A DNA stretch of 64,000 nt from Planctomycetota bacterium (GTDB taxonomy: Bacteria > Planctomycetota > B15-G4 > SIAN01), in contig JANNXA010000050.1 in the NCBI GenBank assembly GCA_031409275.1, positions 160,001 to 224,000 of the forward strand, given 5' to 3'. A program made the position numbers and the translations under genes. Positions 8,671 to 60,294 of the stretch are shown here, one piece after another. The notes under the pieces are model-generated. The model did no database searches and was not told the origin of the DNA. It saw only the letters and a list, made by a program, of their open reading frames with translations. Within the stretch, counting starts at the first letter, position 1, and each line of letters begins with the position of its first letter.

Positions 8671-8699
8671 TCAAGCGGGACGACGGGATTAACCGATGG
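8671..8699 (+). promoter_or_regulatory. putative sigma28-like promoter TCAAG-N16-ACCGATGG upstream of the PilZ-cNMP gene
   Basis: Same motif and exact spacing recur at 9933-9961(-), 47258-47286(+) and 60266-60294(+). Confidence 0.65.
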
Positions 8700-8754
8700 C
8701 GGGCTACGTGGATGTGCTGAATCCCGGTTCAGCCGTCACCGCTGGAGCCATCGC

Positions 8755-9549
8755 TTGGACCAAGGGCTGCTTACCACGCTCGGCCGCCGCAGCGCGCAGC
8801 GCATCTGCCTGCGCGCAGACGTCGGCATCCTCGATGAGGCGACCGGCGAGCGCACGCTCGGCCGATTGCGCGACCTCTCGGCCACCGGCGCCAGCCTCTC
8901 CACGCCGACCCTCCTGCCGATGGGCAAGCCGTTGCGCCTCGCCTTCGAGTTCTCCCAGACCGAAGCACCGATCCGGCTGCACGCCGAGGTCACGTGGACC
9001 GGTCGCACCGCCGCCGTGCGCGCCTCGGTGCTCACGGGACTGCGCTTCCTCGACCTCGCCGGAGCCGACTTCGCGCGGATGCGCGAGTTCATCGATGCGA
9101 AGCTCTGGGAGGTGCAGCGCTTCGTCTGCTCCCTCGACCTCTTCGCCGACCTGAACGATCTCGAGAAGCTGCTGCTTTCCACCGTGCTGCTCGACCGCTC
9201 GCTCAAACCGGGCGAGGCGCTCGAGGAGGAACTCTCCGAAGGCACGCTGATCATCGTGCGTTCCGGCACCCTCCACGGCAGCGAACGGCTGCCCGACGGC
9301 CGCATCCATCAGCGCAAGACGCTGCAAGCCGGCGACCTCGTCGGCGCGCTCCCCGTCGATCCGGGCGGCCCGACGCGGCTCACGATGCGCGCCATCACCG
9401 AAGGGGCGCTGCTGGTGGTGCCGATCGACGGCTTCGAGTACCTCCGTACGCGCCACCCCGAGACGGCATTCAAGCTGCTGTCGGCGTGGACGCTCGCGCT
9501 GCGCGATCAGCTGATGACCGTCGAGCCATCCGAGCCCGAAGCGAGCTGA
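8755..9549 (+). CDS. PilZ domain plus cyclic-nucleotide-binding-like domain protein
   Basis: RSAQR (RxxxR) and DLSATG (DxSxxG) c-di-GMP motifs, GLRF; C-terminal LKPGE...IIVRSG...LQAGDLVG cNMP-like barrel. Confidence 0.85.
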   Translation: MDQGLLTTLGRRSAQRICLRADVGILDEATGERTLGRLRDLSATGASLSTPTLLPMGKPLRLAFEFSQTEAPIRLHAEVTWTGRTAAVRASVLTGLRFLDLAGADFARMREFIDAKLWEVQRFVCSLDLFADLNDLEKLLLSTVLLDRSLKPGEALEEELSEGTLIIVRSGTLHGSERLPDGRIHQRKTLQAGDLVGALPVDPGGPTRLTMRAITEGALLVVPIDGFEYLRTRHPETAFKLLSAWTLALRDQLMTVEPSEPEAS

Positions 9550-9592
9550 GGATCGCGGCGCCTCGCGACTTCCGATCGATCGGACCGATCGA

Positions 9593-9925
9593 TCAGGCGA
9601 AGACGTCGAGCAGGGTTCCGGTGCGCTCGTGCAGCGCGCGCAGTCGCGCGGCATCGACCGCGCCGCCTTCGCGCGCCGCGAGCAGCTCCCCCACGGCATC
9701 GACGAGATCCTCGCGCGCCGGATCGACCTGCACGCGTCCCCCGGCGGTGTAGAGCGCGAGCGGCTCCGCGATCTCTTGCGCGGGCTCGGGCGACGCGGTG
9801 CGCAGCGCGGCCCGCATGGCCATCGAAGCCACGCCGCGCGGGGCGGGAGGTGGCGACGCGCGCACCTCGCTCAGCAGGCGAGCGGCGAGCGCCGAGTCCG
9901 TGGTCGCAGCGATCGGAAACGTCAT
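9593..9925 (-). CDS. small hypothetical protein, 110 aa, ending GTLLDVFA
   Basis: ATG at 9925 lies directly downstream of a sigma28-like promoter; C-terminal G-x-x-L-D-V-x-A resembles small motility-associated proteins (YjfB-like). Confidence 0.65.
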
Positions 9926-9932
9926 GCCGTCC

Positions 9933-9961
9933 GCATCGACGCGCGCGCCGCGCCGCCTTGA
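9933..9961 (-). promoter_or_regulatory. putative sigma28-like promoter TCAAG-N16-GTCGATGC
   Basis: Identical spacing to three other copies; -10 element ends 7 nt before the ATG at 9925. Confidence 0.65.
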
Positions 9962-9969
9962 GCCTGCGG

Positions 9970-9982
9970 GGAACTCTTTTCC
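9970..9982. promoter_or_regulatory. GGAA-N5-TTCC palindrome, putative transcription-factor site
   Basis: 8 nt upstream of the TCAAG element; recurs at 47307-47319 and 60244-60256. Confidence 0.5.
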
Positions 9983-10091
9983 GCGGCGGCGCCCGCAGCG
10001 CTCTCGACCTCGACCGGCAGCGCGAGCACGGTCGATCCACGTCGCTGCACCGGAGCCCGCTCCCACTCATCGCCGGCCCAAGGATCCTCCA

Positions 10092-12812
10092 TTGACGCTG
10101 CGTCGCCAGACCACCTGGACCATCGCGGTCACGCTGCTGCTGCTGGCGATTCCGTTGCAGTGGCTCCTCGATCGGATCCTGCTCGAAGGTTTCGGCCGCA
10201 TCGAGCACCAAGCGACGGCGCGCAACGTCGAACGCGTGGCGGATGCGTTCCGCGCCCAGACCGAGCAGCTCCATCTGAAGGCCACCGACTGGGCATGGTG
10301 GGACGACGCCTACTCGTTCGCCGAGGATCGAAACGACGAGTTCATCGCCTCGAACATGATGAGCTCCGGTCTGGTCTCGCTGCGCGTGAACGCCATCCTC
10401 TTCTTCGATCCCGATGCTGAGCTCATCACGTCGCGCTGCGTGGACCTCGACACCGAAGCCGAGGTCCCGCTGTTTCCTGCGTTGGTGGCGCGGTTCCACC
10501 CAGGATCCCCACTCCTGCGCCGCACCGAGTCCGATCGCGCGAAGTACGGCTTCTTCATCCATGGTGACGAAACGTGGCTGTTCACGGCGGTAGCGATCCT
10601 CGATAGCAACCAGGCTGGACCGGCACACGGCACGCTGGTGTTCGCCACCAGATTCGGTCCCTCCAAGGTCGCTGATCTCGCGGCAGTCACCCATCTCGAT
10701 CTCGCCTTGCATCTCGCAACCGACTTCGAGTCGCTCCCGCCTGACCTTGCGGCCGCGTTGCCCTCGCTGGAGCAGGACCACTCGGTCGTCGCCCCGCTCA
10801 GCGAGGACCTCATCGTCGGCGCCGGCGCGATCGAGGACGTCGACGGCGATCGCTCGCTGCTGGTCCGCATCACCGAACCGCGTGCGATCCACGCGCAGGC
10901 CCTCGCGACCTGCCGCACCGCGCAGGTGGCGTTCGCCGCGACGGCGATCGTGCTCGGCCTCGCGCTGCTGTGGCAACTGCGGCGCGGCGTCGTCGCCCCG
11001 TTGTCGATCCTCTCCACGAAGGTACGTGCCATCGAAGAGAGCGGCGACCTCGACACGCGCATGCCCGAGACGGGCGCCAGCGAACTCGCCGCGCTCGGCC
11101 ACGGCATCAACCAGATGCTCGGCGCGCTCGGCCGTCAGCGGGCGGAGCTCGCCGAGCTGTCGACTTCGCTGGCGACCGCGCGCGACGAGGCACTCGATGC
11201 GGCGCGCGCGAAGTCGGAGTTCCTGGCCAACATGAGCCACGAGATCCGAACGCCGATGAACGGCGTCATCGGCATGACGGGAGTCCTGCTCGACTCGAAG
11301 CTCGACCCCGAGCAGCACGACTACGTCGACACGATCCGCGGCTGCGGCGAGGCGCTGCTCGACCTCATCAACGACATCCTCGACTTCAGCAAGATCGAGG
11401 CCGGGAAGATGACCATCGAGGTGGTCGACTTCGACCCGCGCCACCTCGTCGAGGAGTGCCTTTCGCTGCTGGCCGAACGTGCGCAGCAGAAGGGGCTCGA
11501 GCTCTGCTGCCAGCTCGCGCCGGAGGTGCCCGCCTTCGCCGCCGGCGACCCGGGACGACTTCGCCAGATCCTGCTCAACCTCGTCGGCAATGCGATCAAG
11601 TTCACGGCGAAGGGCGAGGTCGTGGTCCGCGTCAGCGTCGAGCGCGCCGAGGCCGACGCCGACGTGCTGCGGTTCGAAGTCGCGGACACCGGCATCGGCA
11701 TCACGCCCGAGCAGCAGAAGAAGCTGTTCCAGTCGTTCAGCCAGGCCGACGCCTCGACGACGCGCAAGTTCGGCGGAACCGGGCTCGGGCTCGCGATCAG
11801 CAAGCGGCTGTGCGAGCTGATGCAAGGCACCATCGGCGTGCGCAGCGAAGCGGGCCAGGGCAGCTGCTTCTACTTCACCGCGTCGCTCACCCGCCGCGAG
11901 GGGGCGGCGCCGAAAGCCGCTGCGATCACCGCCGAACTCGTCGGCAAGCGCGCGCTGATCGTCGATGACAACGCCACCAACCGCTTCATCCTCGGCAAGC
12001 AGCTCGAGCGCTTCGGGCTCAAGTTCGCGGCGGCCCCGGGCGGCGCCGAGGCGCTGACCCTGCTGGCGCAAGAGCGCGCAGCCGGCCGCACGTTCGACCT
12101 CGCGATCCTCGACTACATGATGCCGGAGATGGACGGCCTGCAGCTCGCCACGCGGATGCGCGCCGATCCGGCATGCGCGACGTTGCCGCTCGTGCTGCTC
12201 TCCTCGGCGGTGGCGCGCAGCCAGGTGCGCGCGAACGAGCCGCGAACCTTCGCGGCCTACCTGCTGAAGCCGGCGCGCGTCGAGCAGCTCCACGAGTGCT
12301 TGAAGATCGTGGTCGGCCACGCGCAGGTCACGAGCCAACCGCCCGAATCTGGCGCGCGCGTAAGCACGACGACAGCCGCGTCGGCGCCGCCGGCGCCCGG
12401 CTCGCGCGGCCGACTGCTGCTGGCCGAGGACAACGCGGTGAACCAGAAGATCGCAGTTCGCCTGCTGCAGACGCTGGGCTGGCAGGTCGATGTCGCCAAC
12501 AACGGCATCGAAGCGGCGCTCGCCGTCACGCAGCGCCGTTACGACGCCGTGCTCATGGACTGCCAGATGCCGGAGATGGACGGCTACGAGGCCACGCGGG
12601 AGATCCGCAAGCGCGAAGTCGCGACCGACGGGGGCGGACACGTCATCGTCCTGGCGATGACCGCCAATGCGATGCAAGGCGATCGCGAGCTCTGCCTCGC
12701 GGCCGGGATGGACGACTACCTCGCCAAGCCGATTCGCCGCGAGGAGCTGCAGCGCGCGCTCGATCGTTGGGTGGCGCCAGCTGCCAACCGAACCGCGCCC
12801 GTGGTCGGGTGA
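10092..12812 (+). CDS. hybrid sensor histidine kinase (CHASE4-HAMP-HisKA-HATPase-REC-REC), about 906 aa
   Basis: TM then DWAWWDDAY (CHASE4); [16 protein letters not shown]-box; N/G boxes ([22 protein letters not shown]); two receivers ([18 protein letters not shown]); TTG start after AAGGA. Confidence 0.95.
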
Positions 12813-12822
12813 TTCCGCTGGG

Positions 12823-14180: not shown

Positions 14181-14321
14181 GACGACGGGCGGCTCCTCCG
14201 GGGCCCACGGGGGAACGAAGAACATCGTTCCCGCCGACCTCCCCAGTCTGGGATGCGTGCTATATCCTCCGCGCCTGCATCCCCCCGGTGACTTCGCTTC
14301 CCTTCGACGGGTTCGATTCGC

Positions 14322-15428: not shown

Positions 15429-15486
15429 CGCCCTCGCCGCGGCGACCTTTCCCGTCCGCAGCGCCGCGCAGAGCCGTCAGGATCCG

Positions 15487-15963: not shown

Positions 15964-16006
15964 CCTACCGACGGAGCGCGCGGCGCGACTTCCACGGCCT
16001 GCCGCG

Positions 16007-16765: not shown

Positions 16766-16810
16766 CGGGAGGGTCCCAAGTCGCCGCTCGCGCGAGTCAT
16801 GCGTCGCGCC

Positions 16811-18466
<1,656 letters not shown>

Positions 18467-47257: not shown

Positions 47258-47286
47258 TCAAGCCAACGGAAGAAAACGCCCGAAAA
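47258..47286 (+). promoter_or_regulatory. putative sigma28-like promoter TCAAG-N16-CCCGAAAA upstream of the TPR/flagellar operon
   Basis: Matches the recurrent motif with identical spacing; TTCC half-site 9 nt upstream. Confidence 0.6.
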
Positions 47287-47306: not shown

Positions 47307-47319
47307 GGAAAGTCGTTCC
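47307..47319. promoter_or_regulatory. GGAA-N5-TTCC palindrome, putative transcription-factor site
   Basis: CGGAAAGTCGTTCCC; same form as 9970-9982 and 60244-60256. Confidence 0.5.
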
Positions 47320-48179: not shown

Positions 48180-49822
48180 GCGCGAGCCTCGTCGCCCTGC
48201 TCGCCGCGCTCCTCGCGCAGGCGAATCCCGCCGACGAGCGCACCGCCGACGCGGCGGAAGCGCTCGAGCGCGAGGTCCTCGCGCAAGACGACGCCTCCGA
48301 AGTGAGGCTCGTTTCAGCGCCCGACGATCCGGAACTGCTCGACGTGGTCGCGCACGGCGTGCCCGCCAGCGTCCTCCTGCAGAAGATCGCCAAGGTGACG
48401 CAACGCGAGCTGCGCCTCGATGCTGGCGAGGCCGCGTTGCGGTCGGCCGCTCCGCTCGACGTCCACTTGAAGCGCCGTCCCACCCATGAAGTGGTCGAGT
48501 GGGTCGCTGGCGCCGCCGGTCTTTGCGCCGAGCTGCTGCGCGCCTCGATCCGCGTCCACGCCGACCGCATCGAAGGGCGCGCGGCGGAGGACGCGCTGCA
48601 GCGTGCGATCGACGGCTGGCACGCCTCCCTCCTGCGCGATCCGCTGCAACCCGACGCCCCGCGCCTGCGCTTCCAGATCGGCAACGCGCTCTACCAACTC
48701 GGCGACTTCCAGAACGCGATCCTCGTCTGGAAGGAGCTCGAGACGAACACCAAGCCGGGGCGGCCGACAGCGTCCGGCTCCGTGGGCGCGGACGACGACT
48801 TCGGCGACCTGCCGATGGTCTACTTCCGGTGCGGCCACGCCTACGCGGCGATGGGCGACGAGCCCAACGCGCAGGAGCAATGGCTCACCATCGCGCAGAG
48901 GTTCTCCGCGAGCGAGCTCGTGGCGAGCGCCCGCCTGGCAGCGGTGCAATCGTTCCGCCGTCAGCATGACGAGACGAACGCGAGCCTCGTGCTTCGGATC
49001 GTCATCGAGGGGATGAGGAGTGGCCTCGCGCCGCTCGACCTCGTCACCGCGGCCGAACTGCTGAACGAGGGTGGCAGCTACGAGCGCGCCTCCGAGGTGC
49101 TGCGTTACGGGATGCCGTCGTTCACCGATCCCAAACTCGAGAATCGCGCCGCGATCGCGTTGGCGCGCAGCCTCGCCGGCCAGCACGACTGGCACGGCGT
49201 GATCGACGCCGCTCAGCGCTTCGCCAAGGAGAGCGGCGATGGCGACCGCGCTGCCGAGATGTGGTTGCTGCTCGGCGAGGCGCACCACCAGCTCGACGAT
49301 CCGTTCACGGCGTTGCTCGCGATCCGCCGAGCCCGCGAGCTCGGCCCGCGGATGGAGGTCTCCTTCGCCATCGACCTGCTCGAGGGCCGGGTCTGGGCGC
49401 GCTCCGGCATGCTCGCCCGCGCGCAACCCTGCCTCGAACGCGCCGGTTCGTGCGCCTTCCCGAGCCTCGCGGCGCCAGCGCTGGCGTTGCACGCGCAGTT
49501 GCTGCGCGACGACGGACAGCTCGAAGCGGCGGCGCGGGCGTGCCAGCAGCTGCAGGCGATTCCGGGCCACGAGGTGGAGGCCGCGCTGGCGCTGGCTCGC
49601 ATCTTCCTCGAGCAGCGCAATCGCGAGCGCTGCCTCACCCTGATCCGCGACACCTTGCCGCTCGCCGATGGCGAACAGCGCGCGGCCCTTTCTGAAATCG
49701 CCCACGAGGCGCTGCGCGACGCGCCGCCCGATCTGAAGTGGCCGGAGTTCCTCGACGCCGAGGCGAGCACGACCACGCCGTCCGAGTCCGACCCTGTGAA
49801 GGAGCCCGCTCATGGCCGCTGA
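48176..49822 (+). CDS. exported TPR protein with an N-terminal secretin-N0/STN-like segment, 548 aa
   Basis: Signal-like N-terminus; LDVVAHGVPASVLLQKIA and LDVHLKRRP alpha/beta segments; many TPRs (FQIGNALYQLGDF, WLLLGEAH). Confidence 0.75.
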   Translation: MSASLVALLAALLAQANPADERTADAAEALEREVLAQDDASEVRLVSAPDDPELLDVVAHGVPASVLLQKIAKVTQRELRLDAGEAALRSAAPLDVHLKRRPTHEVVEWVAGAAGLCAELLRASIRVHADRIEGRAAEDALQRAIDGWHASLLRDPLQPDAPRLRFQIGNALYQLGDFQNAILVWKELETNTKPGRPTASGSVGADDDFGDLPMVYFRCGHAYAAMGDEPNAQEQWLTIAQRFSASELVASARLAAVQSFRRQHDETNASLVLRIVIEGMRSGLAPLDLVTAAELLNEGGSYERASEVLRYGMPSFTDPKLENRAAIALARSLAGQHDWHGVIDAAQRFAKESGDGDRAAEMWLLLGEAHHQLDDPFTALLAIRRARELGPRMEVSFAIDLLEGRVWARSGMLARAQPCLERAGSCAFPSLAAPALALHAQLLRDDGQLEAAARACQQLQAIPGHEVEAALALARIFLEQRNRERCLTLIRDTLPLADGEQRAALSEIAHEALRDAPPDLKWPEFLDAEASTTTPSESDPVKEPAHGR

Positions 49823-50654
49823 GAAGCTGTTTGCCGCTCTCCTGGCGCTGACCGGCGGCGACACCATCGAGGAGATGCTGCGCGCCAACGAGTTGCTGGT
49901 GACGCAACTGCTCGATCTGCAGCAGCGCGTGCGCTCGGGCGAACTCGTGCCGCTCGCCGAGCTCGGACTCGCGGCGCCGACGCGCGAGGAGATCCTCTCG
50001 GGACTCGACGTGCGCGCCGCATTGAAGCTCGGCATCGAGCCTTCCGCCGTTCGTGATCGCCTCGCACCGGGATTCGACGCCGAGCTCGATCAGCTCGCGA
50101 CGCAACGTGAGAAGCTCCTGTCGGGCCCGCCGTCGGACCCTTCGCCTCTCCTCACGCTGATGCTCGACTTCGAGGTCGAGATGAAGGCGCTGCAGGATCG
50201 CCGCCGCCAATCGCTGCGGCTGAAGAACCCGCTCGACTCCGGACCGCTCGCCTCGACGCTCCAGCCCGAAGGTGCTCCCGGTCCTGCGGTGGTCGATGGA
50301 GTCGACGCCGCGGCTCCGGCAGACGGTGGCAGCTCGCACCGCCCACGGCCCTCCCCCGTCGACGCTCGCCTTGCCGCCGCCGCGCTCTATCGGGCGGGCC
50401 GTTGGCAAGAGGCACTCGACGCGTGGGGCCGCATGGCCTCGGACGCGAAGCCGACGATCGAGGAGGAGTACCAGCGCGCCGACTGCCTCATGCGCCTGAC
50501 GCGTGCCGACGAGGCGATCGAGATCTGGGAGAAGATCGCGGCCGAACACGCCGACACGCCGTGGGGCGCGCAGTCGACCTTCTCGCTCAAGGTGGCGCGC
50601 GCCCTCTCGGCGCTGCAGCGAGCCAAGCAGCCCGCGGCGGGAGGCAAGTCGTGA
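49812..50654 (+). CDS. hypothetical protein with C-terminal TPR repeats, 280 aa
   Basis: GGAG RBS; LYRAGRWQEALDAW and YQRADCLMRL...EAIEIWEKI...TPWG. Confidence 0.75.
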   Translation: MAAEKLFAALLALTGGDTIEEMLRANELLVTQLLDLQQRVRSGELVPLAELGLAAPTREEILSGLDVRAALKLGIEPSAVRDRLAPGFDAELDQLATQREKLLSGPPSDPSPLLTLMLDFEVEMKALQDRRRQSLRLKNPLDSGPLASTLQPEGAPGPAVVDGVDAAAPADGGSSHRPRPSPVDARLAAAALYRAGRWQEALDAWGRMASDAKPTIEEEYQRADCLMRLTRADEAIEIWEKIAAEHADTPWGAQSTFSLKVARALSALQRAKQPAAGGKS

Positions 50655-51904
50655 ACGCCGCCGTCGCCGTTCGCGATCCGCAGGCGCTGGCGCGCAGCTT
50701 CGACGCCTTCACCCGCATCTCGCGCGAGCTCGAGGTCGCGTACGACCGGCTGCGCGAGCAGGCGGCTCGCATCGACCTCGCGCTGGCCGACACCAACCGT
50801 CGACTCGCCGCCAAGGTCGCCGAGCTCGATGCCGTGCTGTCGAGCTTGAAGGGCGCCGTCGTCGTGACCGATCCGGAAGGCCGCATCACGCTGGCCAATC
50901 GTTCGTTCGCCGAGCTCGCCGGCTCCGAGCCCGACGCCCTGGTCGGCCGTCGCAAGGCGGAGCTGCGCGACGAGCAGGGGCTGCCGCTGTGCGAGCCGAA
51001 CGGCGAGGACGCTGACCGCGTCGCCCTCCCCTGCCGCACGCTCGCCATCGAGGGGGCCACCCGCGTGGTCCGCTCGTCGCGGGCGCCGGTGGTCGACGCC
51101 GATGGCCGCGCGCTCGGCGAGGTCGAAGCGCTCTCGGACGAGACCGAACTCGAGGCGCTTCGAGACGAGGTGCGCCGTCGCGAGACGCTGACCGCGCTCG
51201 GCGAGATGGCCGCCGGCATCGCCCACGAGATCAGGAACCCGCTCACCGCGATCGAAGGCTTCTCGCAACTGCTGATCGCGGTGCTGCCGGACGGCAACGA
51301 CGACTGCGCCAACCATGCGCGACGCATCAGCCAGGCGGTCCGCAAGGCCAACTCCATCATCACCAACCTGCTCTGCTTCGCGCGGCCGGACCAGTTCCGG
51401 CCCCAGCGCTCCCGCCTCGCACCGCTGCTGGCCGAGCTGCGCGCCAGCTTCGTCGACGGCGCCGAAGGGCTCGCGACTGTCGAAGTGCGCGCGACCGAAC
51501 CCACCGATCTCACGGTGGCCTGCGACCTCGCGCTGATCGAGCGCGTGCTGGTCAATCTGGTCGAGAACGCGCGCCGAGAGGCCGGCGCCGCCGGTCGCGT
51601 CGTCGTGCGCGCTCGCGGCGGCGAGGACGAGGTCGTGCTCTCCGTCGAGGATGACGGCCCCGGGATCCCGACCGCGCTGCGCGGGAAGCTGTTCCGACCG
51701 TTCGTCACCGGCCGCGCCGACGGCACCGGACTCGGCCTGTTCCTCGTCCACCGCATCGTCGAGCTGCACCACGGCCGCGTCGTCGCGCAGGACCGCGTCG
51801 GCGGCGGCACGACCTTCACCGTCCACCTGCCCACCGGCGCCGCGACGGCGGCCGCCTCCGCATCGGTCACCGCCTTCGCCAATCTCCGAGGGATCGAAGC
51901 ATGA
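50651..51904 (+). CDS. cytoplasmic PAS sensor histidine kinase (FleS/FlgS-like), 417 aa
   Basis: N-terminal coiled coil, PAS (VVVTDPEGRITLAN), LGEMAAGIAHEIRNPL, NLVENA, DDGPG, GTGLGL. Confidence 0.93.
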   Translation: MNAAVAVRDPQALARSFDAFTRISRELEVAYDRLREQAARIDLALADTNRRLAAKVAELDAVLSSLKGAVVVTDPEGRITLANRSFAELAGSEPDALVGRRKAELRDEQGLPLCEPNGEDADRVALPCRTLAIEGATRVVRSSRAPVVDADGRALGEVEALSDETELEALRDEVRRRETLTALGEMAAGIAHEIRNPLTAIEGFSQLLIAVLPDGNDDCANHARRISQAVRKANSIITNLLCFARPDQFRPQRSRLAPLLAELRASFVDGAEGLATVEVRATEPTDLTVACDLALIERVLVNLVENARREAGAAGRVVVRARGGEDEVVLSVEDDGPGIPTALRGKLFRPFVTGRADGTGLGLFLVHRIVELHHGRVVAQDRVGGGTTFTVHLPTGAATAAASASVTAFANLRGIEA

Positions 51905-53328
51905 AGCTCGAACGGGCGCTTGTCGTCGAGGACGACCAGCTCGGCCGCGAGTTCGTCGCGGAGGCGCTCGAGCGCCTCGGCATCGCCGCACGCGTGGCGA
52001 GGAACGGCCGGGAGGCGATCGCGCTCCTCGAACGCGAGGAGGTGGACTTCATCCTCACCGACTTGCGCATGCCGGAGGTCGACGGGCTCGGCGTCCTGCG
52101 CGCCGCGCGCGAACTCGCGCCCAACACCCCGATCGCGCTGATGACGGCGCACGGCACGCTCGACATCGCCGTCCAGGCGCTGCGAGAGGGCGCCGACGAC
52201 ATCCTGCTCAAGCCGTTCGGACCCGACCAGCTCGCGCTGCTGCTCGAACGGATCGGCGGCCGCATGCAGCTGCGCCACGAGAACCGGCGGCTGCGCCTCG
52301 AACTCGAAAGCGATGCCGGCACCCGCGAGATCGTCGGCAGCTCGCCAGCGATCCGCTCGGTGCTCGACCAGATCCGGCGCGTCGCGGCCAGCAAAGCGAC
52401 CGTCTTCATCCGCGGCGAGAGCGGCACCGGCAAGGAGCTCGCGGCGCGCGCGATCCACCAGATGTCGCCGCGCAAGGACGCCCCCTTCGTTCGCGTGAAC
52501 TGCGCCGCGCTTTCCGAGACCCTCCTCGAGAGCGAGCTGTTCGGACACGAGCGCGGGGCGTTCACCGGCGCGACGCAGCGGCGCGAGGGGCGCTTCGAAC
52601 TGGCCCACAAGGGAACGTTGCTGCTCGACGAGGTGAGCGAAGTGTCGCCGCGGATCCAGGCCAAGCTGCTGCGCGTCCTCGAAGAGGAGGAGTTCGAGCG
52701 CGTCGGCGGCACGCGCACGCTGCAGGTCGACGTGCGCGTCATCGCGACCAGCAACCGCGACCTCGAAGCGGCGCTGCGCGACGGGTCGTTCCGCGAGGAC
52801 CTCTTCTATCGACTCCACGTGGTGCCGCTGCAGCTGCCGCCGCTGCGCGAGCGGGCGCAGGACGTCCCCGAACTCGCGGCCGCCTTCCTCGCCCGCTTCG
52901 CCAAGGAGAACGGCAAGGTCGTGCGGCGGATCACTCCCGAAGCGATGGGCCGGCTCGCCGCCTATCGCTGGCCGGGCAACATCCGCGAGCTCAGCAACGT
53001 GATCCAGCGCGCCGTCGTGCTGGCGCCCGGCGACACCGTCGAAGTCGAGCAGCTGCCGCTGCCGGCCGTCGAACAGGGCCGCGCCGACGCGATGGCGGGC
53101 GCGGTCGGCATGCGCGCCGAAGACGTCGAGCGCGAGCTGATCCTGCGCACGCTGCGCTCGACCGGCGGCAACCGGACGCGAACCGCCGACCTGCTCGACC
53201 TCACCGCGCGCACCATCAACAACAAGATCCGCCTCTATCGCACGCAAGGCCACGCGATCCCGGAACCGACTCGCGGCATCGCGCGCCCCAAGCCCCGCGA
53301 ACTCGAGGCGGCGGGAGAAGTGACATGA
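51901..53328 (+). CDS. sigma54-dependent response regulator (FleR/FlgR-like; REC-AAA+-HTH)
   Basis: DLRMP, GESGTGKE, ESELFGHERGAFTGA, LLDE, FREDLFYRL, WPGNIREL, GNRTRTADLL. Confidence 0.95.
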   Translation: MKLERALVVEDDQLGREFVAEALERLGIAARVARNGREAIALLEREEVDFILTDLRMPEVDGLGVLRAARELAPNTPIALMTAHGTLDIAVQALREGADDILLKPFGPDQLALLLERIGGRMQLRHENRRLRLELESDAGTREIVGSSPAIRSVLDQIRRVAASKATVFIRGESGTGKELAARAIHQMSPRKDAPFVRVNCAALSETLLESELFGHERGAFTGATQRREGRFELAHKGTLLLDEVSEVSPRIQAKLLRVLEEEEFERVGGTRTLQVDVRVIATSNRDLEAALRDGSFREDLFYRLHVVPLQLPPLRERAQDVPELAAAFLARFAKENGKVVRRITPEAMGRLAAYRWPGNIRELSNVIQRAVVLAPGDTVEVEQLPLPAVEQGRADAMAGAVGMRAEDVERELILRTLRSTGGNRTRTADLLDLTARTINNKIRLYRTQGHAIPEPTRGIARPKPRELEAAGEVT

Positions 53329-53699
53329 ACGATTTCGACAAGAGCTTCGCGGTCACGCAGAAGATCCTCGACTGGACCACGGCGCGCGCACGCGCGTTGA
53401 CGACCAACATCGCCCACGCCAGCGAACCGGGCTACAAGCGCGTCGACGTCAGCTTCGCCGACCTGCTGGACGCGATGCGCGCGGAGCGCGATCACGGCCA
53501 GAAGGGCGCGCTCGCCCGCGCCACGCCCAAGCCGGAAGTCGACCTCTTCGCGGCGCCGAGCGCCAACGGCAACACGGTCGACTTCGAGCGCGAACAGGTG
53601 CAGATCGACAAGAACTCGATGACCCACGAGCTCGCCACGTTCTTCGCGAACTCGAAACTCAACTCGATGCGTTCCGCGATCCGCGGCCACGCGAGCTGA
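53325..53699 (+). CDS. flgB: flagellar basal-body rod protein FlgB
   Basis: NIAHASEPGYKRVDVSF, NGNTVDFERE; position before flgC. Confidence 0.9.
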   Translation: MNDFDKSFAVTQKILDWTTARARALTTNIAHASEPGYKRVDVSFADLLDAMRAERDHGQKGALARATPKPEVDLFAAPSANGNTVDFEREQVQIDKNSMTHELATFFANSKLNSMRSAIRGHAS

Positions 53700-53710
53700 A
53701 GGAGGTTGCC

Positions 53711-54151
53711 ATGTCGGAACCGCTGTCGTTCCAGGTCTTCGACATCACGGCGTCGGCGCTCGCCGCCGAACGCACGCGCCTTGCCGTGATCGCGCAGAAC
53801 ATCGCCAACTCCGAGGTGACGAAGGCGGCGAACGGCCAGCCCTACCGCCGGCAGCGCGTGCAGTTCGAGGGCGTGCTGGCGCAGGAAGTCGCGCGCCGCG
53901 GCAAGGGCCAGGGCAGCCTGCCGGCCGGCGGCATTCGCGCCATCGTCGGCGACGCGCCCGGCGACTTCCAGCGCGTGCGCGACCCCGGACACAAGGACGC
54001 GGACAAGGACGGCTGGGTGCAGAAGCCCAACGTCAACGTCGTCGAGGAGATGGTCGACATGATCGACGCCTCGCGCACCTACGAAGCGAACCTCTCCGCG
54101 CTGCGCACCTGGAAGCAGATGCTGTCGCGCACGCTCGAGATGACCCGGTGA
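53711..54151 (+). CDS. flgC: flagellar basal-body rod protein FlgC
   Basis: ASALAAERTRL..IAQNIAN, PYRR, DPGHKDAD..G.V..PNVNVVEEMVDMI.ASR.YEAN. Confidence 0.97.
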   Translation: MSEPLSFQVFDITASALAAERTRLAVIAQNIANSEVTKAANGQPYRRQRVQFEGVLAQEVARRGKGQGSLPAGGIRAIVGDAPGDFQRVRDPGHKDADKDGWVQKPNVNVVEEMVDMIDASRTYEANLSALRTWKQMLSRTLEMTR

Positions 54152-54441
54152 GCGGGCTCGACGTCAGCCAGGTCCGCTCGCTGCTCGAGCAGGCCCAGAA
54201 AGGCGCCGCCGGCAAGTCGAATGCGACGCCGGCCCAGGACTTCGCCGACCTGCTGGCCGAGACCAGCCAGAAGCAGCGCGGGGCCGAGAAGGCGTTCGAG
54301 GACTACGCCGTCGCCGGCAAGGGCGAACTGCACGACGTGATGGCGCAGATGGCGAAGGCCGACGTCGCGTTCCGCTTCCTGCTCGAGGTGCGCAACAAGC
54401 TGACCGACGCCTACCAGGAGATCTCGCGCATCCAGGTCTAG
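54148..54441 (+). CDS. fliE: flagellar hook-basal body protein FliE
   Basis: LHDVM..M.KA.V.F...LEVRNKL..AYQEI. Confidence 0.95.
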   Translation: MSGLDVSQVRSLLEQAQKGAAGKSNATPAQDFADLLAETSQKQRGAEKAFEDYAVAGKGELHDVMAQMAKADVAFRFLLEVRNKLTDAYQEISRIQV

Positions 54442-54484
54442 GCCCTGATTCGTGCCCGATCGAACCACCGAAAGCGAGTGATCC

Positions 54485-56095
54485 ATGAACTTCTGGCAGG
54501 AGATCCTGAGCCGTCCCCGCGACGTCTACGCGAAGCTCTCGCGCGGACAACGCTTCGGCGTGCTTGCGCTCTTCTCGATCGGTGTCGTCGTCGCCGTGCT
54601 GTCGAGCCTGCTCGCCGGCCGCCAGAGCTACTCGATGCTCTACAGCGGCCTCGAGCCCGACGCCGCCAGCGAGCTGGTGACCAAGCTCGCCGAGCTCGGC
54701 GTCCCCTACACGATCTCGCCCGACGGCGGGATGGTGTCGGTCCCCGACGACCGCGTCGCCGAGATCAAGATGCAGCTCGCCGCGGCAGGGCTGCCGAAGA
54801 TCGGCTCGAGCGGCTGGGACCTCTTCGACGGCAACCAGCTCGGCCTCACCGACTCGCTGTTCAACGTCAACCTGCAGCGCGCGATCCAGGGCGAGATCGA
54901 GAAGTCGATCACCAAGTGCGGCCCGGTGAAGCAGGCGCGCGTGATGGTCTCGCTCAAGGAACCGGGCGTCTACTCGAAGGACAAGTCGCGGGCGTCGGCG
55001 TCCGTCACGCTGTGGCTGCGGCCCGGCATGCCGCTGTCCGACTCGCAGGTCGCCGCGGTCGCTCACGTCGTCGCCGCGGGCGTCGGCTACGGCATGCGTC
55101 CCGAGGACGTGAAGATCAGCGATTCGAACTTCAACCTGCTCTACCCAAGCGGGAACGGCAACGACCCGATGTTCTCGACGGAGTACCTCCAGAAGGCGCA
55201 GTCGCTGGAGCGCGCGCTGCAGGAGAAGGCCGAGTCGCAGCTGCGCACGGCGTTCGGCGAGAACAAGGCTTCGGTGCGGGTCAGCGTCGAGCTCGACCTG
55301 AAGCACCGCGAGAAGGCGATCGAGAAGGTCGACGACAAGAACAAGGTCCCGGTGAAGCTGTTCGTCGACAAGGAGGAGCTCGCCGGCGGCAGCGCGACCG
55401 GCGGCGACCCGAGCCTTTCGAGCGGACCGAAGAAGAGCGGCGAGCCGAAGACGCTGCGGTCGGAGTCGCAGACGGAGTACCGCGAAGGCGTCGAGCGGTC
55501 GCTCGAGATCGAGGCGGCCGGCCAGATCCTCCACATGTCGGTGAGCCTCCTCCTCGACGAGAGCCTGATCGCGCCCGGAGCCGACGGCCAGCCCGCGGTG
55601 AAGGCCGAAGACATCGAAGCGATCGTGAAGAACGCGGTCGGATTCGTCGAGGGCAAGGGCAAGACTCGCCAGGACTCGTTCAAGACGATGACCACCGCCT
55701 TCGCGAAGGCGGCGGCGCCGGAGGAGCCGGCGGGCCCCTTCGCGATCGAGAACCTGCTGCCGCTCGCCGGCCACCTCGCCGAGGCGATCACCGTCCTCGT
55801 GGTCCTGCTGACGCTGACCCGCATCGTGCGCGGCGGCGCTCCGAAGGCCAAGAAGAGCTCGGCGACGACGGCGATGAGCGGAGCGAACGGCGCCGCGATG
55901 GCGGGGAAGGCCGGCAAAGCCGGCAAGCCCGCGAAGAACACCGGCGTCGAGGACCTCGACGAGATGGAGGAGCTGGTGCTCGGCGCGGAGCGAGGCATCG
56001 ACGTGCGCACGCGCCTCGCCCGCTTCGTCCAGCACCATCCCGACCAGGCGCGCGAAGTGTTGGTGGCGTGGCTCAAGGAAGAAGCGGCGGCCTGA
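54485..56095 (+). CDS. fliF: flagellar MS-ring protein FliF
   Basis: N-terminal TM, LYSGL, G.DLFD, RAIQGEIEKSI, ARV, ASASV; second TM; P...REVLVAWL. Confidence 0.93.
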   Translation: MNFWQEILSRPRDVYAKLSRGQRFGVLALFSIGVVVAVLSSLLAGRQSYSMLYSGLEPDAASELVTKLAELGVPYTISPDGGMVSVPDDRVAEIKMQLAAAGLPKIGSSGWDLFDGNQLGLTDSLFNVNLQRAIQGEIEKSITKCGPVKQARVMVSLKEPGVYSKDKSRASASVTLWLRPGMPLSDSQVAAVAHVVAAGVGYGMRPEDVKISDSNFNLLYPSGNGNDPMFSTEYLQKAQSLERALQEKAESQLRTAFGENKASVRVSVELDLKHREKAIEKVDDKNKVPVKLFVDKEELAGGSATGGDPSLSSGPKKSGEPKTLRSESQTEYREGVERSLEIEAAGQILHMSVSLLLDESLIAPGADGQPAVKAEDIEAIVKNAVGFVEGKGKTRQDSFKTMTTAFAKAAAPEEPAGPFAIENLLPLAGHLAEAITVLVVLLTLTRIVRGGAPKAKKSSATTAMSGANGAAMAGKAGKAGKPAKNTGVEDLDEMEELVLGAERGIDVRTRLARFVQHHPDQAREVLVAWLKEEAAA

Positions 56096-56122
56096 CGGCC
56101 CGATCCGGATCGGAGGAACTCC

Positions 56123-57124
56123 ATGGTCATGAAGCTGCGCGGTGCCCAGAAGATTGCAGCGGTCCTGCTCGGTCTCGACAAGGACGTCGCGGCGCGGCTC
56201 ATGCAGGCGTTGCCCAGCGATCGGCTCGATCCCGTCACGGAGGCGATGGTCGAGCTCTCCGATCGCCGTCTCACGCCGCAGGACACCGAGCCGGCGCTGG
56301 ACGAGTACGTGAAGCGCATCGCGGCCGGCGCATCGGCCACGAACGACTTCAAGGAACTGCTGCGCCAGGCCCTCGGCGCGGAGAGGGCCGACGAGCACCT
56401 CCACAAGATGCAGGGGCTGCGCGAGCGCGGCAATCCGCTGGCGCCGCTCGAGCTGCTGCCGCCGCAGGAAGTGGCGGAAGTGCTGCAGGACGAGAACGAG
56501 CAGGTCTGCGCCATCGTGCTGACCGGCATGAAGGCGACCGCGGCGGCGCGCGTGCTCGAGTGCTTCCCCGTCGAGCGCCGTCCGCTGGTGATCGGCCGCA
56601 TCGCCAAGTCGGCGACGCCGCGCCGCGAGCTGCAGGAGGAGATCGCGGCCGCGCTGCTGATGCGACTGGCACCGGCGCAACCGACACGTCGCGGCGACGC
56701 CCGCGGCGTCTCCGTCGCGGCGCAGATCATCAACTACCTCTCGCAAGACACCGAGGCAGCGATCACCGAGTCGCTGCAGCAGTCGGAGGAGACGCTGTTC
56801 CAGCAGATCGACGAGCAGCGCGTGACGATGGAGGACCTCGTCGGCATCGACAAGCGGGCCATGCAGAAGATCCTCGCGGCGATCGACACGCGCGTGCTCA
56901 CCGTCGCGCTCAAGAGCGCCTCCAAGGAAGTCGAGAGCGCGATCCTCGACAACGTCTCGAAGCGTTCGCGCGAGACGATCCTCGAGGAGCGCGAGCTGCT
57001 CGGCGCGCTGCCGATGACCGAGATCCAGCAGGCGCGCATGGAGCTCCTGAACCAGGTGCGCGCGCTCATGAAGAGCGGCGAAGTGAAGCTGCGCCGAGCG
57101 GGAGGCGACGATGTCGTCGAATGA
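56123..57124 (+). CDS. fliG: flagellar motor switch protein FliG
   Basis: GAQKIAAVLL, ENEQVCAIVL, AAQIIN, ALK, NVSKR..ETILEE. Confidence 0.93.
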   Translation: MVMKLRGAQKIAAVLLGLDKDVAARLMQALPSDRLDPVTEAMVELSDRRLTPQDTEPALDEYVKRIAAGASATNDFKELLRQALGAERADEHLHKMQGLRERGNPLAPLELLPPQEVAEVLQDENEQVCAIVLTGMKATAAARVLECFPVERRPLVIGRIAKSATPRRELQEEIAAALLMRLAPAQPTRRGDARGVSVAAQIINYLSQDTEAAITESLQQSEETLFQQIDEQRVTMEDLVGIDKRAMQKILAAIDTRVLTVALKSASKEVESAILDNVSKRSRETILEERELLGALPMTEIQQARMELLNQVRALMKSGEVKLRRAGGDDVVE

Positions 57125-57686
57125 CGCCGCGAACGACAAGGTCTGCCACGCGCTCGCCGGAGTGGGCGCGCGCGCGGGCGGCGTCTCGATGCGCGCCGGA
57201 GCGACCGTGCGCGTGGTCGATCGCACCCCGGCGCTGCCGCCGCCGCCGACCATCGATGTCGCGCCGCTGGCGCGCGCGCTCGAGGCCGGCTTCAAGTCCT
57301 TGAAGGTGCAGGTCGAGATCAGCTTCGCCGAGATCGAGCGCGAGTGCGTCGAGCTCGCGCTCGGCGCTGCCGAGGCGCTGACGCGCGCGCGCTGCGAGCG
57401 CGGCGAACTGGCGCTGGAGGCGCCGCTCAGCGCGCTGCTCGCAGCCAAGCGACGCGAGCTCGAGACGCTGCCCGCGCTGCTGCGACTTCACCCCGCCGAC
57501 GCCGAGGCGATCGGCCCGAAGCTCGCCGAGCTCACGCCGCCAAACGCCCGGGTCGAGCTGCTCGCGGATGGCGCTTCGCCGCGCGGCCAGCTGGCGCTCG
57601 AGATCGGCGCGGCGCGCGTGGTCTGGTCGCTCGGCCAGGAGATCGCGCAGATGCGGCGCGCGCTCTTCGACGGAGGCAAGAGCTGA
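57111..57686 (+). CDS. fliH: FliH-like flagellar export protein (short, divergent)
   Basis: Between fliG and fliI; ELAL..AE, LRLHPAD, D....RG C-terminal pattern. Confidence 0.75.
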   Translation: MSSNDAANDKVCHALAGVGARAGGVSMRAGATVRVVDRTPALPPPPTIDVAPLARALEAGFKSLKVQVEISFAEIERECVELALGAAEALTRARCERGELALEAPLSALLAAKRRELETLPALLRLHPADAEAIGPKLAELTPPNARVELLADGASPRGQLALEIGAARVVWSLGQEIAQMRRALFDGGKS

Positions 57687-59017
57687 TGCCGGCGCTGCGA
57701 CTGGCCCGCTTCAAGGAGCGGATCCCGACGGGGCTCGCGCTGCGCCGCGAAGGGCGCATCCGTCGACTCGTCGGCATGACGCTCGAGGCGGAGGGGCTTC
57801 CGGGCGAGATCGGCGAGCTCTGCTTCGTGCAGGGCGCGCACGGCGAAGTGCCCGTCGAGATCGTCGGTTTCCATGGTGAACGCACCACGCTGCTCCCGCT
57901 CGAGCGGCTCGACGGCATCGCCGATGGCGCGCTGGTCGTCGCCACCGGCGGTCCGTTCTGCGCACCGGTCGGCACCGCGCTGCTCGGCCGCGTGATCGAC
58001 GGCCTCGGGCGGCCGCTCGACGGGAAGGGCGAGCTGCAGGACGTCGGCCGCCGCCCGCTGCTCGCGCCGCCGCCCGATGCGATGAGCCGTCCCAGCATCG
58101 TGCAGCGCTTCGAGACCGGCGTGCGCGCGATCGACCTGCTGAACACGCTCGGAGAGGGACAGCGCGTCGGCATCTTCGCCGGCTCCGGCGTCGGCAAGTC
58201 GACGCTGCTCGGCAAGATCCTGCGCGAAGCGAAGGCCGACGTGACGGTGCTGGCGCTGATCGGCGAGCGCAATCGCGAAGTGCGCGATTTCGTCGACAAG
58301 CAGCTCGGCGTAGCCGGACTGCGCCGCGCCGTGGTGGTCGCCTCCACCTCCGATCGCCCCGCTCTGCAACGGCTGAAGGCGGCGCACCTCGCGGCCACCA
58401 TCGCCGACCACTTCCGCGACGAAGGCAAGCGCGTGCTGCTGGTGATGGACAGCGCGACGCGCTTCGCGATGGCGCTGCGCGAGGCGGGGCTCGCTGCCGG
58501 CGAGCCACCGACCACGCGCGGTTACCCGCCGTCGCTCTTCGCCGAGCTGCCTCGATTGGTCGAGCGCTTCGGAACCAGCGCCAAGGGCTCGATCACCGCA
58601 TTGCTCACCGTGCTGGTCGAAGGCGACGACATGAACGACCCGGTCGCCGACTGCTTGCGCGGCCTCCTCGACGGCCACCTCGTGCTGTCGCGCACGCTGG
58701 CGGAACGCGGCCACTATCCGCCGATCGATCCGCTGAAGAGCCTGTCGCGTCTCATGGACCAGGTCAGCGGCGCGCGCCACCAGGCCGCCGCGCAGAAGCT
58801 GCGCCACTGGCTGGCGCTCTACGAGGACCACCGCGACCTGATCGAGATCGGCGCCTACCGACGCGGCAGCGAACCGATGCTGGACAAGGTGCTGGAGAAG
58901 CTGCCGCAGATCCATGCGCTGCTGAAGCAGGCGCCGGACGAGCGCGCGCCCTTCGACGCCGCGCTCGCCGCGCTGGTCGCGCTGACCGAGCCGACCGAGC
59001 CGAGGAGCTCGCCGTGA
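57686..59017 (+). CDS. fliI: flagellar export ATPase FliI, 443 aa
   Basis: GQRVGIFAGSGVGKSTLL, LIGERNREV, GEPPTTRGYPPS, VLVEGDDMNDP, DGHLVLSR. Confidence 0.96.
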   Translation: MPALRLARFKERIPTGLALRREGRIRRLVGMTLEAEGLPGEIGELCFVQGAHGEVPVEIVGFHGERTTLLPLERLDGIADGALVVATGGPFCAPVGTALLGRVIDGLGRPLDGKGELQDVGRRPLLAPPPDAMSRPSIVQRFETGVRAIDLLNTLGEGQRVGIFAGSGVGKSTLLGKILREAKADVTVLALIGERNREVRDFVDKQLGVAGLRRAVVVASTSDRPALQRLKAAHLAATIADHFRDEGKRVLLVMDSATRFAMALREAGLAAGEPPTTRGYPPSLFAELPRLVERFGTSAKGSITALLTVLVEGDDMNDPVADCLRGLLDGHLVLSRTLAERGHYPPIDPLKSLSRLMDQVSGARHQAAAQKLRHWLALYEDHRDLIEIGAYRRGSEPMLDKVLEKLPQIHALLKQAPDERAPFDAALAALVALTEPTEPRSSP

Positions 59018-59460
59018 AGAAGAGCGGGCTGGCGAGCTGGCACAAGCTGGTCGACGCGCAGGTGCGCGAGCGCAAGCTCGCGTTGGCGCGGGCGCGGCAA
59101 CTGGCGGCGCGCTGCGCCGACATCGAAGCGGTGCTCCTCGGCGAGAGGGCTCGGCGAGACGAGGAGGAGCGGCGCCTGCGCGCGGCGGGCGAGCTGCCCG
59201 ACTTCGCGCGCGAACGGATGAACGTGCTGCTCGAGCAGACACTCGAGCGCGCACGCGACAAGCTCGCCGCCGCACGCGTCGGCGAGGAGCGCGCGCTGGC
59301 CGGGCTGCGCGAGGCGTGGCAGCGCGCGACCGCGGTGGAGCGACTGCTCGACCGCCGCCGCGAGCGCGACGCGACGCAGCGGCTGCAAACGGAACAGAAG
59401 GAAATCGATGAGGTCGCGACGCGGCGTGCCGCCGCTTCGCTCACGGAGACGCGGCGATGA
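59014..59460 (+). CDS. fliJ: FliJ-like flagellar export protein
   Basis: 148-aa coiled coil after fliI ending EQKEIDE. Confidence 0.8.
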   Translation: MKKSGLASWHKLVDAQVRERKLALARARQLAARCADIEAVLLGERARRDEEERRLRAAGELPDFARERMNVLLEQTLERARDKLAAARVGEERALAGLREAWQRATAVERLLDRRRERDATQRLQTEQKEIDEVATRRAAASLTETRR

Positions 59461-60182
59461 AGAAGCTGATGCCTTGGCTGCGATTGGGTGCGTTCTGCTT
59501 CGCGCTGTTCGGCATCTCGGCGTTGGCCGTGCTGCTCAAGCAAGGGCGCTTGCTGCAGCACGAGAAGGGGCCCGACGAGCAGGTCGGCGAGCACCCCGAA
59601 GGTGAGCCCGAAGAGAAGGAGGAGGCGGTGAAGGCCTCCCTTGGCGGCAGCACGAATCCCGCCGCCGGCACCGACGACGCCAAGCGCGCGAAGTCGCTTG
59701 CGACCGGTCGCGCGCTGTTCGACCTGCCGGCACCGATCTCGATCGCCGAGGCGAGCGACCTGCTGAACGAGCTCAAGCGGCAGAAGGCCGACAACGACGT
59801 TCGCCGCGCCGCGCTCGAACAGCGCGAGCGTGAAGTCGCGGCCATGGAGAGCGAGATCGAGACGCGCCGGACCGAGGTGATCAAGCTCATCGACAAGCTC
59901 CAGCTGAGCACGCCCGTCGCCCCTGGCGACGCCGCCGAAGAACCGCTCGATCCGAAGGCGCTCACGGTGCTTGCCGGCATCGTCGCGTCGATGCAGCCGG
60001 ATGTCGCCGCGCGTTGGTTGGAGCAGACGGAGGCCGGCAAGGCGGCGATGATCCTGCTGCGGATGGAAGAGGCGAAGGCGGCCGAGGTGCTGGCGCTGAT
60101 CGCGCCCGACAAGCTCCTCAAGCTCACCGACATGCTGCTGCGGACGAAGGTGGACACGGACGCGGAGAGCGACGGCGGCTGA
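59457..60182 (+). CDS. MotE/YlxF-like flagellar protein (TM, coiled coil, MgtE-N-like C-terminus)
   Basis: SMQPDVAA..L...AAMILLRMEEAKAAEVLALI.P; position after fliJ. Confidence 0.8.
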   Translation: MKKLMPWLRLGAFCFALFGISALAVLLKQGRLLQHEKGPDEQVGEHPEGEPEEKEEAVKASLGGSTNPAAGTDDAKRAKSLATGRALFDLPAPISIAEASDLLNELKRQKADNDVRRAALEQREREVAAMESEIETRRTEVIKLIDKLQLSTPVAPGDAAEEPLDPKALTVLAGIVASMQPDVAARWLEQTEAGKAAMILLRMEEAKAAEVLALIAPDKLLKLTDMLLRTKVDTDAESDGG

Positions 60183-60243
60183 CCCCGTCGACCGGCGCGC
60201 GCGTCGGTCGATGACGGAGAGGAGCGGCGGTCCGGCGCCGCTC

Positions 60244-60256
60244 GGAACGAAGTTCC
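60244..60256. promoter_or_regulatory. GGAA-N5-TTCC palindrome, putative transcription-factor site
   Basis: CGGAACGAAGTTCCC, 9 nt upstream of TCAAG. Confidence 0.5.
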
Positions 60257-60265
60257 CGCTTCTCC

Positions 60266-60294
60266 TCAAGCGTGGGCCGATCGTCGTCCGATAG
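60266..60294 (+). promoter_or_regulatory. putative sigma28-like promoter TCAAG-N16-TCCGATAG upstream of fliL
   Basis: Best match of the four copies to the GCCGATAA -10; lies in the 265-bp gap before fliL. Confidence 0.68.

Follow-up and report, generated by a model that had tools for sequence, protein, structure and literature searches.

A 64,000-nucleotide (nt) stretch of DNA from a Planctomycetota bacterium (contig JANNXA010000050.1 of assembly GCA_031409275.1, positions 160,001–224,000; hereafter the window) carries several copies of a promoter-like element, TCAAG-N16-NYCGAW, that belong to a genome-wide class with sigma28-type boxes and a long spacer. This class is very probably read by a form of sigma28 with a shortened helix before region 4, and its specific reader is probably one WhiG-like paralogue, sigA28, which on sequence grounds would stand above the flagellar FliA in a cascade. 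Throughout, Nx stands for a spacer of x bases from the end of the 5-mer TCAAG to the beginning of the 8-mer NYCGAWNN, the −10 box. In this notation the Pseudomonas aeruginosa fliC promoter is TCTAAAG-N14-GCCGATAA (PMC12784957), and the actinobacterial WhiG consensus XT(C/A)AX-16-GCCGA corresponds to N15 (PMC13595943); here and below, comparisons with published sigma28-family factors refer to the accessible parts of the papers cited. An earlier note on this DNA had described four TCAAG-N16 sites whose spacer exceeds that of known sigma28 promoters by 2 nt. The difference holds against P. aeruginosa fliC, but the class spans N15–N16 and WhiG promoters have been searched for at the N15 equivalent, so the gap is 1 nt as well as 2.

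The four sites are real: in each, TCAAG and the 8-mer are separated by exactly 16 nt, and by pattern and gene calls all are intergenic and face the next gene (Table 1). They compare with 0.43 ± 0.64 matches expected in the window, and none of 100 shuffles reached four; at the other spacers from N11 to N20 there is a single match, N14 at 54954, inside fliF. A fifth, divergent site, which the note had missed, precedes a gene whose homologue in the non-flagellated genome G013 also has an N16 site (L163).

Genes of the host genome (G000) were called with a dicodon model trained for this analysis (4097 genes, 90% coding), and the frame-matched spacers N13 and N19 served as controls for N16. Genome-wide, TCAAG-N16-NYCGAW has 29 matches, of which 25 are intergenic and 23 are oriented, with a gene on the same strand no more than 300 nt away. 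The corresponding counts are 84/20/12 at N15, 84/9/3 at N14, 13/5/1 at N13 and 15/7/3 at N19, and matches at spacers other than N16 lie mostly within coding sequence. Across 2624 upstream regions, TCAAG-N16 ranks first of all pentamer-by-spacer pairs upstream of YCGAW (24 versus 2.64 expected), so the spacer scan proposed in the earlier note does return N16 as the leading bipartite motif before genes; TTCAG-N16 (12 versus 2.0) and TCAAG-N15 (12 versus 2.6) are also enriched. An iterated matrix, whose N16 counts lean high because it was trained on N16 sites, finds 64 N16 and 19 N15 sites at 15 bits or more (6–14 at the remaining spacers) and 108 N16 sites at 13 bits or more (26–40 at other spacers). 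This suggests about 50–75 real N15–N16 sites in the genome, all predicted promoters. Their count-matrix consensus, YT(C/T)(A/C)AG-N16(15)-G(C/T)CGA(T/A), has the sigma28-type boxes T(A/C)AAG at −35 and GCCGA(T/A) at −10. The spacer histogram shows a sharp N16 peak and no genome-wide N14 excess, and N16 sites have a consistent orientation towards genes, with a concentration about 60 nt ahead of their starts. An ATG lies 7 nt past the −10 box at 6 of the 108 N16 sites and at 0 of 251 controls.

Two other accounts of the motif were rejected. TCAAG is the reverse complement of the sigma70 −35 element CTTGA, and sense and antisense copies are similarly frequent (307 versus 330), yet the N16 pairing is about twice as common on the sense strand (22 versus 10); the antisense TCAAG-N16 matches are probably divergent promoters. 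Nor does N16 restore sigma70 geometry: the P. aeruginosa numbering (−36 to −30, −15 to −8) puts N14 at the equivalent of 17 base pairs (bp) and N16 at that of 19 bp. A different, inverted-repeat-like pair, TTCGA-N19-(T/C)CGA(A/T), is also enriched in the upstream regions of G000 (25 versus 6.8).

The earlier note had assigned one altered spacer to a motility regulon. This did not hold, because before flagellin genes and fliD these boxes stand at canonical N14, and there are thus two classes. Within the order, 27 of 29 flagellin loci have N14 as their best upstream site, which carries the distinct tail CCGAA(T/C)(C/A)A, and fliD has an N14 site in four of seven cases. N16 is the best site before fliL in all eight genomes of family f1 (one weak) and in two of seven in family f2, and before the operon that opens with orf47358 in all four genomes that hold this gene; N16 sites also precede flgH (3/6) and flbD/motA (5/6). 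(Outside the window, the names flgH, flgF, fliO, fliD, flbD, motA, cheA and pilM were assigned by inspection and from synteny, except where a family search is mentioned.) Upstream of the fliO...flhA-fliA operon stands CTAAAG-N15-(T/A)CCGAC in seven of seven family genomes, and in three of five cases an N15 site precedes the gene for a FlgM-like protein (Pfam E 0.003, which is below cut-off). The site before flgF in G000 and G006 is sigma54-like; G003 and G004 have CGGCAC variants of it. The class found in the window therefore differs from canonical FliA promoters both in its spacer, with N16 modal and N15 minor, and in not preceding the late genes for flagellin and cap.

In G000, N15 and N16 sites precede fliLMN, the TPR/kinase/regulator-flgBC-fliEFGHIJ operon, flgH, flbD-motAB, pilT genes, one pilin gene, the cheA operon, PilZ and HDOD genes, and many others. 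Among operon heads for PilT, pilin, PilZ, HDOD or CheW-domain genes, 10 of 25 have such a site, compared with 140 of 2624 overall and 0 of 25 at control spacers (PilT 3/5, pilin 1/9, PilZ 3/5, HDOD 2/5, Che 1/1); this count leaves out one PilT gene with no upstream region and one pilin with no gene call. The genome encodes seven PilT-family ATPases above the cut-off. A sigma70-family factor below the FliA cut-off (C44:86094-86768) has an N16 site upstream both here and in G013 (L156), which suggests a further step in the cascade. The note's proposal of a divergent FliA/WhiG-type sigma factor that co-regulates both flagellar operons, the PilZ and cyclic-nucleotide-binding gene and an orphan gene is thus upheld in part: the class is enriched and conserved, and divergent paralogues are present. 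Its scope was too narrow, as many of the estimated sites, including many top-scoring N16 sites, precede genes without an evident motility role, and the class is kept in relatives in which no flagellin was found.

Conservation across the order supports the N16 class. Counts of YTCAAG-Nx-NYCGAW at N16/N13/N19 are 158/62/57 in f1, 344/73/97 in f2, 36/10/8 in f3 and 273/81/96 in f4; the degenerate pattern TYMAG-N16 had been uninformative across relatives, with a high background and a reversed-pattern control that was not composition-matched, and the frame-matched spacers were used instead. N16 exceeds both controls in 14 of the 15 f4 genomes (72–92% complete), in which no flagellin scored over the cut-off and only two sigma28 matches each were found. 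Because the excess persists there with neither flagellin nor the FliA of the flagellar cluster (cluster FliA) found, cluster FliA is not the N16 reader. In G013 and G033, a permissive test, run without a control, placed 34 of 37 N16 sites outside coding-like sequence. Of 17 target genes that could be evaluated, 9 have a G000 homologue with an N16 site of at least 13 bits, against a background of about 4%.

Three G000 proteins pass the FliA/WhiG model TIGR02479 (cut-off 189.6), namely sigA28 (253.9 bits), sigB28 (199 bits) and cluster FliA (208.5 bits), and all have regions 2, 3 and 4 by Pfam. Of these FliA/WhiG paralogues, which the note had proposed to inspect, two of the three lack three residues before region 4.1. 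From a conserved proline after the sigma finger to a conserved leucine at the start of region 4.1, sigA28 (30/30) and sigB28 (40/40) have 17 residues, whereas cluster FliA (8/8, its relatives labelled Planctomycetota), WhiG, Escherichia coli FliA and the genome's RpoD have 20. sigA28 is found in 41 of 41 genomes of the order at 57–96% identity (one partial) and sigB28 in all 41 (one partial), and a third sigma28 match occurs only in flagellated genomes. Among solved structures, sigA28 is closest to Streptomyces venezuelae WhiG (231 bits, versus 166 bits for E. coli FliA), by pairwise similarity only. Its R124, S253 and Q257 correspond to P. aeruginosa R97, S224 and Q228 (alignment to 9wsf, offset 5) and are invariant in 84 homologues; sigB28 and cluster FliA keep the same DNA-reading motifs, DxxR...R and ESRxxQ in sigB28. 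In a quick tree of 109 rows, without G116 or actinobacterial sequences and with long-branch warnings and no reliable root, 13 of 14 canonical-length sigma28s group together (Shimodaira–Hasegawa-like approximate likelihood-ratio support 96). A single-sequence fold of sigA28 was poor (mean predicted local distance difference test (pLDDT) 41). An alignment-based fold (pLDDT 79, predicted template-modelling score 0.45) placed short helices at 206–209 and 212–220 with moderate confidence and matched SigD/WhiG/FliA in Foldseek; a model of the free sigma factor is uninformative on spacer geometry. The sigA28 gene has a sigma70-type promoter upstream in eight of eight family members, and N16 autoregulation of sigA28 was not seen consistently. 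Six sigA28 genes of family f2 (L040, L042, L044, L048, L049 and L050) have an upstream N14 site with a flagellin-type tail (CGAA(C/G/T)AA or CGAACTT), which suggests feedback from FliA.

The link between helix length and spacer extends to the phylum. A sigma28 match was found in 83 of 91 sampled genomes; the best match is of the short form in 76 and canonical in seven. YTMAAG-Nx-RYCGAW at N16/N13/N19 totals 1056/723/708 in the 76 short-helix genomes, 67/69/72 in the seven canonical ones and 71/70/84 in the eight without a match, and the N16 excess is confined to genomes in which the short form is present. N16 is above both controls in 49 of the 76, 15 of them individually at p < 0.01, p-values that overstate the significance because the sampled genomes are related. 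Genomes with a single sigma28 match show the excess too (N16/N13/N19: G063 16/0/0, G068 15/1/1, G091 12/0/1, G043 17/7/3). Flagellin loci follow a similar pattern when a strong site is defined by a score of at least 19, a threshold picked after viewing: in canonical-only genomes six of 11 loci have a strong site, all N14; in short-only genomes 15 of 44 do (N15 10, N16 2, N14 2, N12 1); and in multi-sigma genomes 11 of 25 do (N14 4, N15 4, N16 1, other 2). Flagellin open frames fall into two length types: those of about 280 amino acids (aa) occur mainly where a genome has several sigma28s, and those of about 480–510 aa mainly where the short-helix form is the only one, a hint of two flagellar systems within the phylum.

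Several observations weigh against this assignment. Besides the bias of the matrix towards N16, an ATG 8 nt past the −10 box is as frequent in controls (8/251) as at N16 sites (4/108). A search for RNA evidence turned up only runs with a small share of matching words (0.08). Family f5 shows no excess (82/84/107 at N16/N13/N19), with four of five genomes lacking N16 above both controls, and the kin genomes counted in the order are not independent. In the phylum, 27 of 76 short-helix genomes likewise lack N16 above both controls (for example, G081, G106, G127 and G126), 29 of 44 short-only flagellin loci have no strong site, whole-genome counts cannot test N15, and genomes were designated as having a single sigma28 from one query at E ≤ 1e-22. 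Finally, sigB28 has the same deletion and distribution as sigA28, and order-level data cannot separate the two, while actinobacterial WhiG is canonical in helix length and its promoters were searched at the N15 equivalent (PMC13595943); the deletion is therefore not needed for a longer spacer.

The shared features of the paralogues leave room for a reading, which we regard as unlikely, in which sigB28 serves the N16 promoters or the two paralogues split N16 and N15 between them. sigB28 is as widespread as sigA28, has the deletion in 40 of 40 sequences and keeps the DNA-reading motifs. It nevertheless evolves fast, at 36–49% identity outside the family compared with 57–76% for sigA28, whereas four families share a stable motif; in the phylum, genomes with one sigma28 match still show the N16 excess, and the N15 and N16 site lists have the same boxes. 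A reader outside the sigma28 family is very unlikely. G000 has 59 Sigma70_r2 matches, and a conceivable reader is one of some 55 further sigma70-family proteins, or a transcription factor that binds a bipartite site. The boxes, however, are those found at N14 before the flagellin genes of the same genome, the excess is absent from the eight genomes without a sigma28 match and the seven canonical-only ones, and the orientation and position of the sites relative to gene starts fit promoters.

Promoters activated by MerR have long spacers, and N16, being N14 plus 2 bp, resembles them. An 85-aa protein consisting only of a MerR helix-turn-helix (HTH) overlaps the start of sigB28 (L003:2244-2501; G000 C51:338815-339072, minus strand). 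Such a gene adjoins sigB28 in 15 of 41 genomes of the order (f1 8/8, f2 7/12), and MerR-like matches also lie beside several other planctomycete sigma28 genes. Separately, a palindrome, GGAA-N5-TTCC, has 36 intergenic copies in G000 (2–13 at other spacings), including C50:248450, C50:258164 and about 30 more outside the window. It is about 8-fold enriched beside sigma28-type promoters (12 of 140 N15/16 promoters versus 28 of 2484 others), stands beside three of the four reported sites and is conserved within the flagellar clusters of G003 and G004. A predicted co-regulator probably uses it as operator; one candidate for this co-regulator is an HTH and receiver protein (C22:28350), with both the palindrome and an N16 site. 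Either factor might twist the DNA for a sigma28 of ordinary spacing, but we think this highly improbable. None of the 15 f4 genomes has the MerR gene beside sigB28, and a search of four of them in whole failed to find it in three (one weak 37% match), although the N16 excess is kept there. The spacers are not palindromic (4.83 versus 4.78 ± 0.30), and the GGAA-N5-TTCC palindrome lies outside the spacer at a variable distance, also beside N14 promoters. With no dyad operator in the spacer and a MerR gene not found in every searched genome that has the motif, MerR twisting was rejected as a general mechanism. That cluster FliA alone reads both N14 and N16 as a relaxed sigma factor, as the near-identical boxes and the N16 sites within its own cluster might suggest, is extremely unlikely and already largely refuted by the f4 genomes, since the N16 class is kept in genomes that yielded no flagellin and no third sigma28, and the sharp N16 peak comes with no genome-wide N14 excess.

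Table 1. Promoter-like sites, predicted targets and palindromes in the window, and sigma28 paralogues of the genome.
Feature	Position	Strand	Basis or remark
N16 promoter-like site TCAAG-N16-ACCGATGG	8671..8699	+	Before PilZ and cyclic-nucleotide-binding gene; matrix score 17.3 bits
PilZ + cyclic-nucleotide-binding protein, 264 aa, likely target	8755..9549	+	Pfam PF07238, PF00027 above cut-off
N16 site TCAAG-N16-GTCGATGC	9933..9961	-	In-frame ATG 7 nt past −10 box, at 9925
Orphan open reading frame, 110 aa, likely leaderless target	9593..9925	-	Start is the ATG at 9925
GGAA-N5-TTCC	9970..9982	.	Between divergent N16 sites, 8 nt upstream of 9961 −35 box
Fifth, divergent site TCGAC-N16-GTCGATCC	10010..10038	+	Matrix score 15.3 bits
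Hybrid sensor histidine kinase, likely target of the 10010 site	10092..12812	+	NCBIfam BarA/TorS-like, below cut-offs
N16 site TCAAG-N16-CCCGAAAA, head of first flagellar operon	47258..47286	+	Pattern match; footprint in relatives
GGAA-N5-TTCC	47307..47319	.	20 nt downstream of the −10 box of the 47258 site
Operon: 3 TPR proteins, sensor kinase, sigma54-type response regulator, flgB, flgC, fliE, fliF, fliG, fliH-like, fliI, fliJ-like, MgtE_N protein	47358..60182	+	Family searches; fliH-like and fliJ-like by position
GGAA-N5-TTCC	60244..60256	.	9 nt upstream of fliL −35 box
N16 site TCAAG-N16-TCCGATAG, before fliLMN	60266..60294	+	Pattern match; footprint in relatives
fliL-fliM-fliN	60448..62529	+	NCBIfam matches below curated cut-offs, plus synteny
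sigA28, WhiG-like paralogue, non-flagellar	G000 C14:269578-270417		TIGR02479
sigB28	G000 C51:338057-338818		TIGR02479
Cluster FliA	C50, after flhA		TIGR02479

The three TPR proteins (47358–50654) that open the basal-body operon are kept in G003, G005 and G006. For the orphan frame, its C-terminal 76 aa have no NCBIfam or Pfam match; its best Atlas similarity is 0.90 to an unnamed cluster, and a FliE-like cluster at 0.88 is a lead only.

We propose that sigA28 is transcribed by the housekeeping sigma factor and would read the N15–N16 promoters of pili, chemotaxis, signalling, basal body and switch, and motor genes. It would also read the N15 promoter of the fliO...flhA-fliA operon and drive the operon containing the sigma54-type regulator, which would serve the flgF promoter. 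FliA, restrained by the neighbouring FlgM-like protein, would then read the N14 promoters of flagellin and fliD, and spacer length would insulate the two regulons despite almost identical boxes. More speculatively, the loss of about one helical turn before region 4 may shift the −35-reading head on RNA polymerase and so set the longer spacer; a causal role for the three-residue deletion is possible, if somewhat doubtful. The widest version of this model, equally tentative as a whole, is an unrecognized phylum-wide sigma28 subfamily in which the lost turn retunes RNA polymerase to promoters 1–2 bp longer and which, in this order, supplies a master lifestyle sigma factor (for pili, chemotaxis, cyclic di-GMP effectors and the early flagellum) over canonical FliA, with the regulons insulated almost solely by spacer.

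The polar flagellar hierarchy of Pseudomonas and Vibrio has four tiers, FleQ-sigma54-FleSR-FliA. The arrangement here resembles it in the sensor kinase/sigma54-regulator pair before flgB, the sigma54-like site before flgF and the use of FliA and FlgM for flagellin; it differs in that the tier over the kinase/regulator pair and fliA is a predicted second sigma28-family factor, not a sigma54 activator. With canonical FliA of P. aeruginosa the system shares the −35 T(C/A)AAG, the −10 GCCGA and the three DNA-reading residues, and the host flagellin and fliD promoters match its N14. Unlike those of canonical FliA, the window sites are 2 bp longer, stand before early and middle flagellar, pilus and signalling genes, and are kept in genomes without a flagellin found, and their likely reader lies outside the flagellar cluster with the shorter proline-to-leucine distance (17 versus 20). 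By family model and DNA-reading residues the likely reader belongs to the FliA/WhiG family, and the promoter class appears to work like a WhiG-type regulon, departing from canonical FliA in spacer, targets and helix. Its predicted targets overlap those of WhiG1 and WhiG2 in Streptomyces, Rubrobacter and Actinoplanes, which include type IV pili, chemotaxis, cyclic di-GMP-related proteins, response regulators, sigma factors and several flagellar operons (PMC13595943, PMC8325347). The modal spacer in G000, N16, exceeds that of the WhiG consensus by one base, the WhiG helix is canonical, and the proteins were compared pairwise only. WhiG1 and WhiG2 recognize similar promoters (PMC13595943), whereas the coexisting planctomycete paralogues appear to be separated by spacer. 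Chlamydia trachomatis sigma28, likewise from the Planctomycetes–Verrucomicrobia–Chlamydiae superphylum, also works without flagella, but has two targets bound in chromatin immunoprecipitation sequencing (PMC12282069) against the about 50–75 predicted here.

The word Planctomycetota has 0 occurrences in the accessible text of PMC13595943 and PMC8325347. In the literature, as far as its text was accessible, we came upon no description of sigma28 promoters or sigma28 paralogues in planctomycetes, of the three-residue indel or of sigma28 paralogues split by spacer, although promoter alignments in the figures or supplements of these two papers may show WhiG spacers up to N16; nor did we find a defined promoter class or motility hierarchy for planctomycetes. 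These bacteria divide asymmetrically and form flagella in the released daughter cell (PMC11958385). Our analysis offers a promoter consensus, a predicted cascade and a candidate master sigma factor, the last present in 76 of 91 sampled genomes, complete ones included. With two naturally occurring sigma factors that would use near-identical boxes at different spacers, and with one three-residue indel to examine, it becomes directly testable which part of a sigma factor determines the −35/−10 spacing, a long-standing question. If the model is true, these would be natural orthogonal sigma factors built on identical boxes, and orthogonal sigma/promoter pairs may follow.

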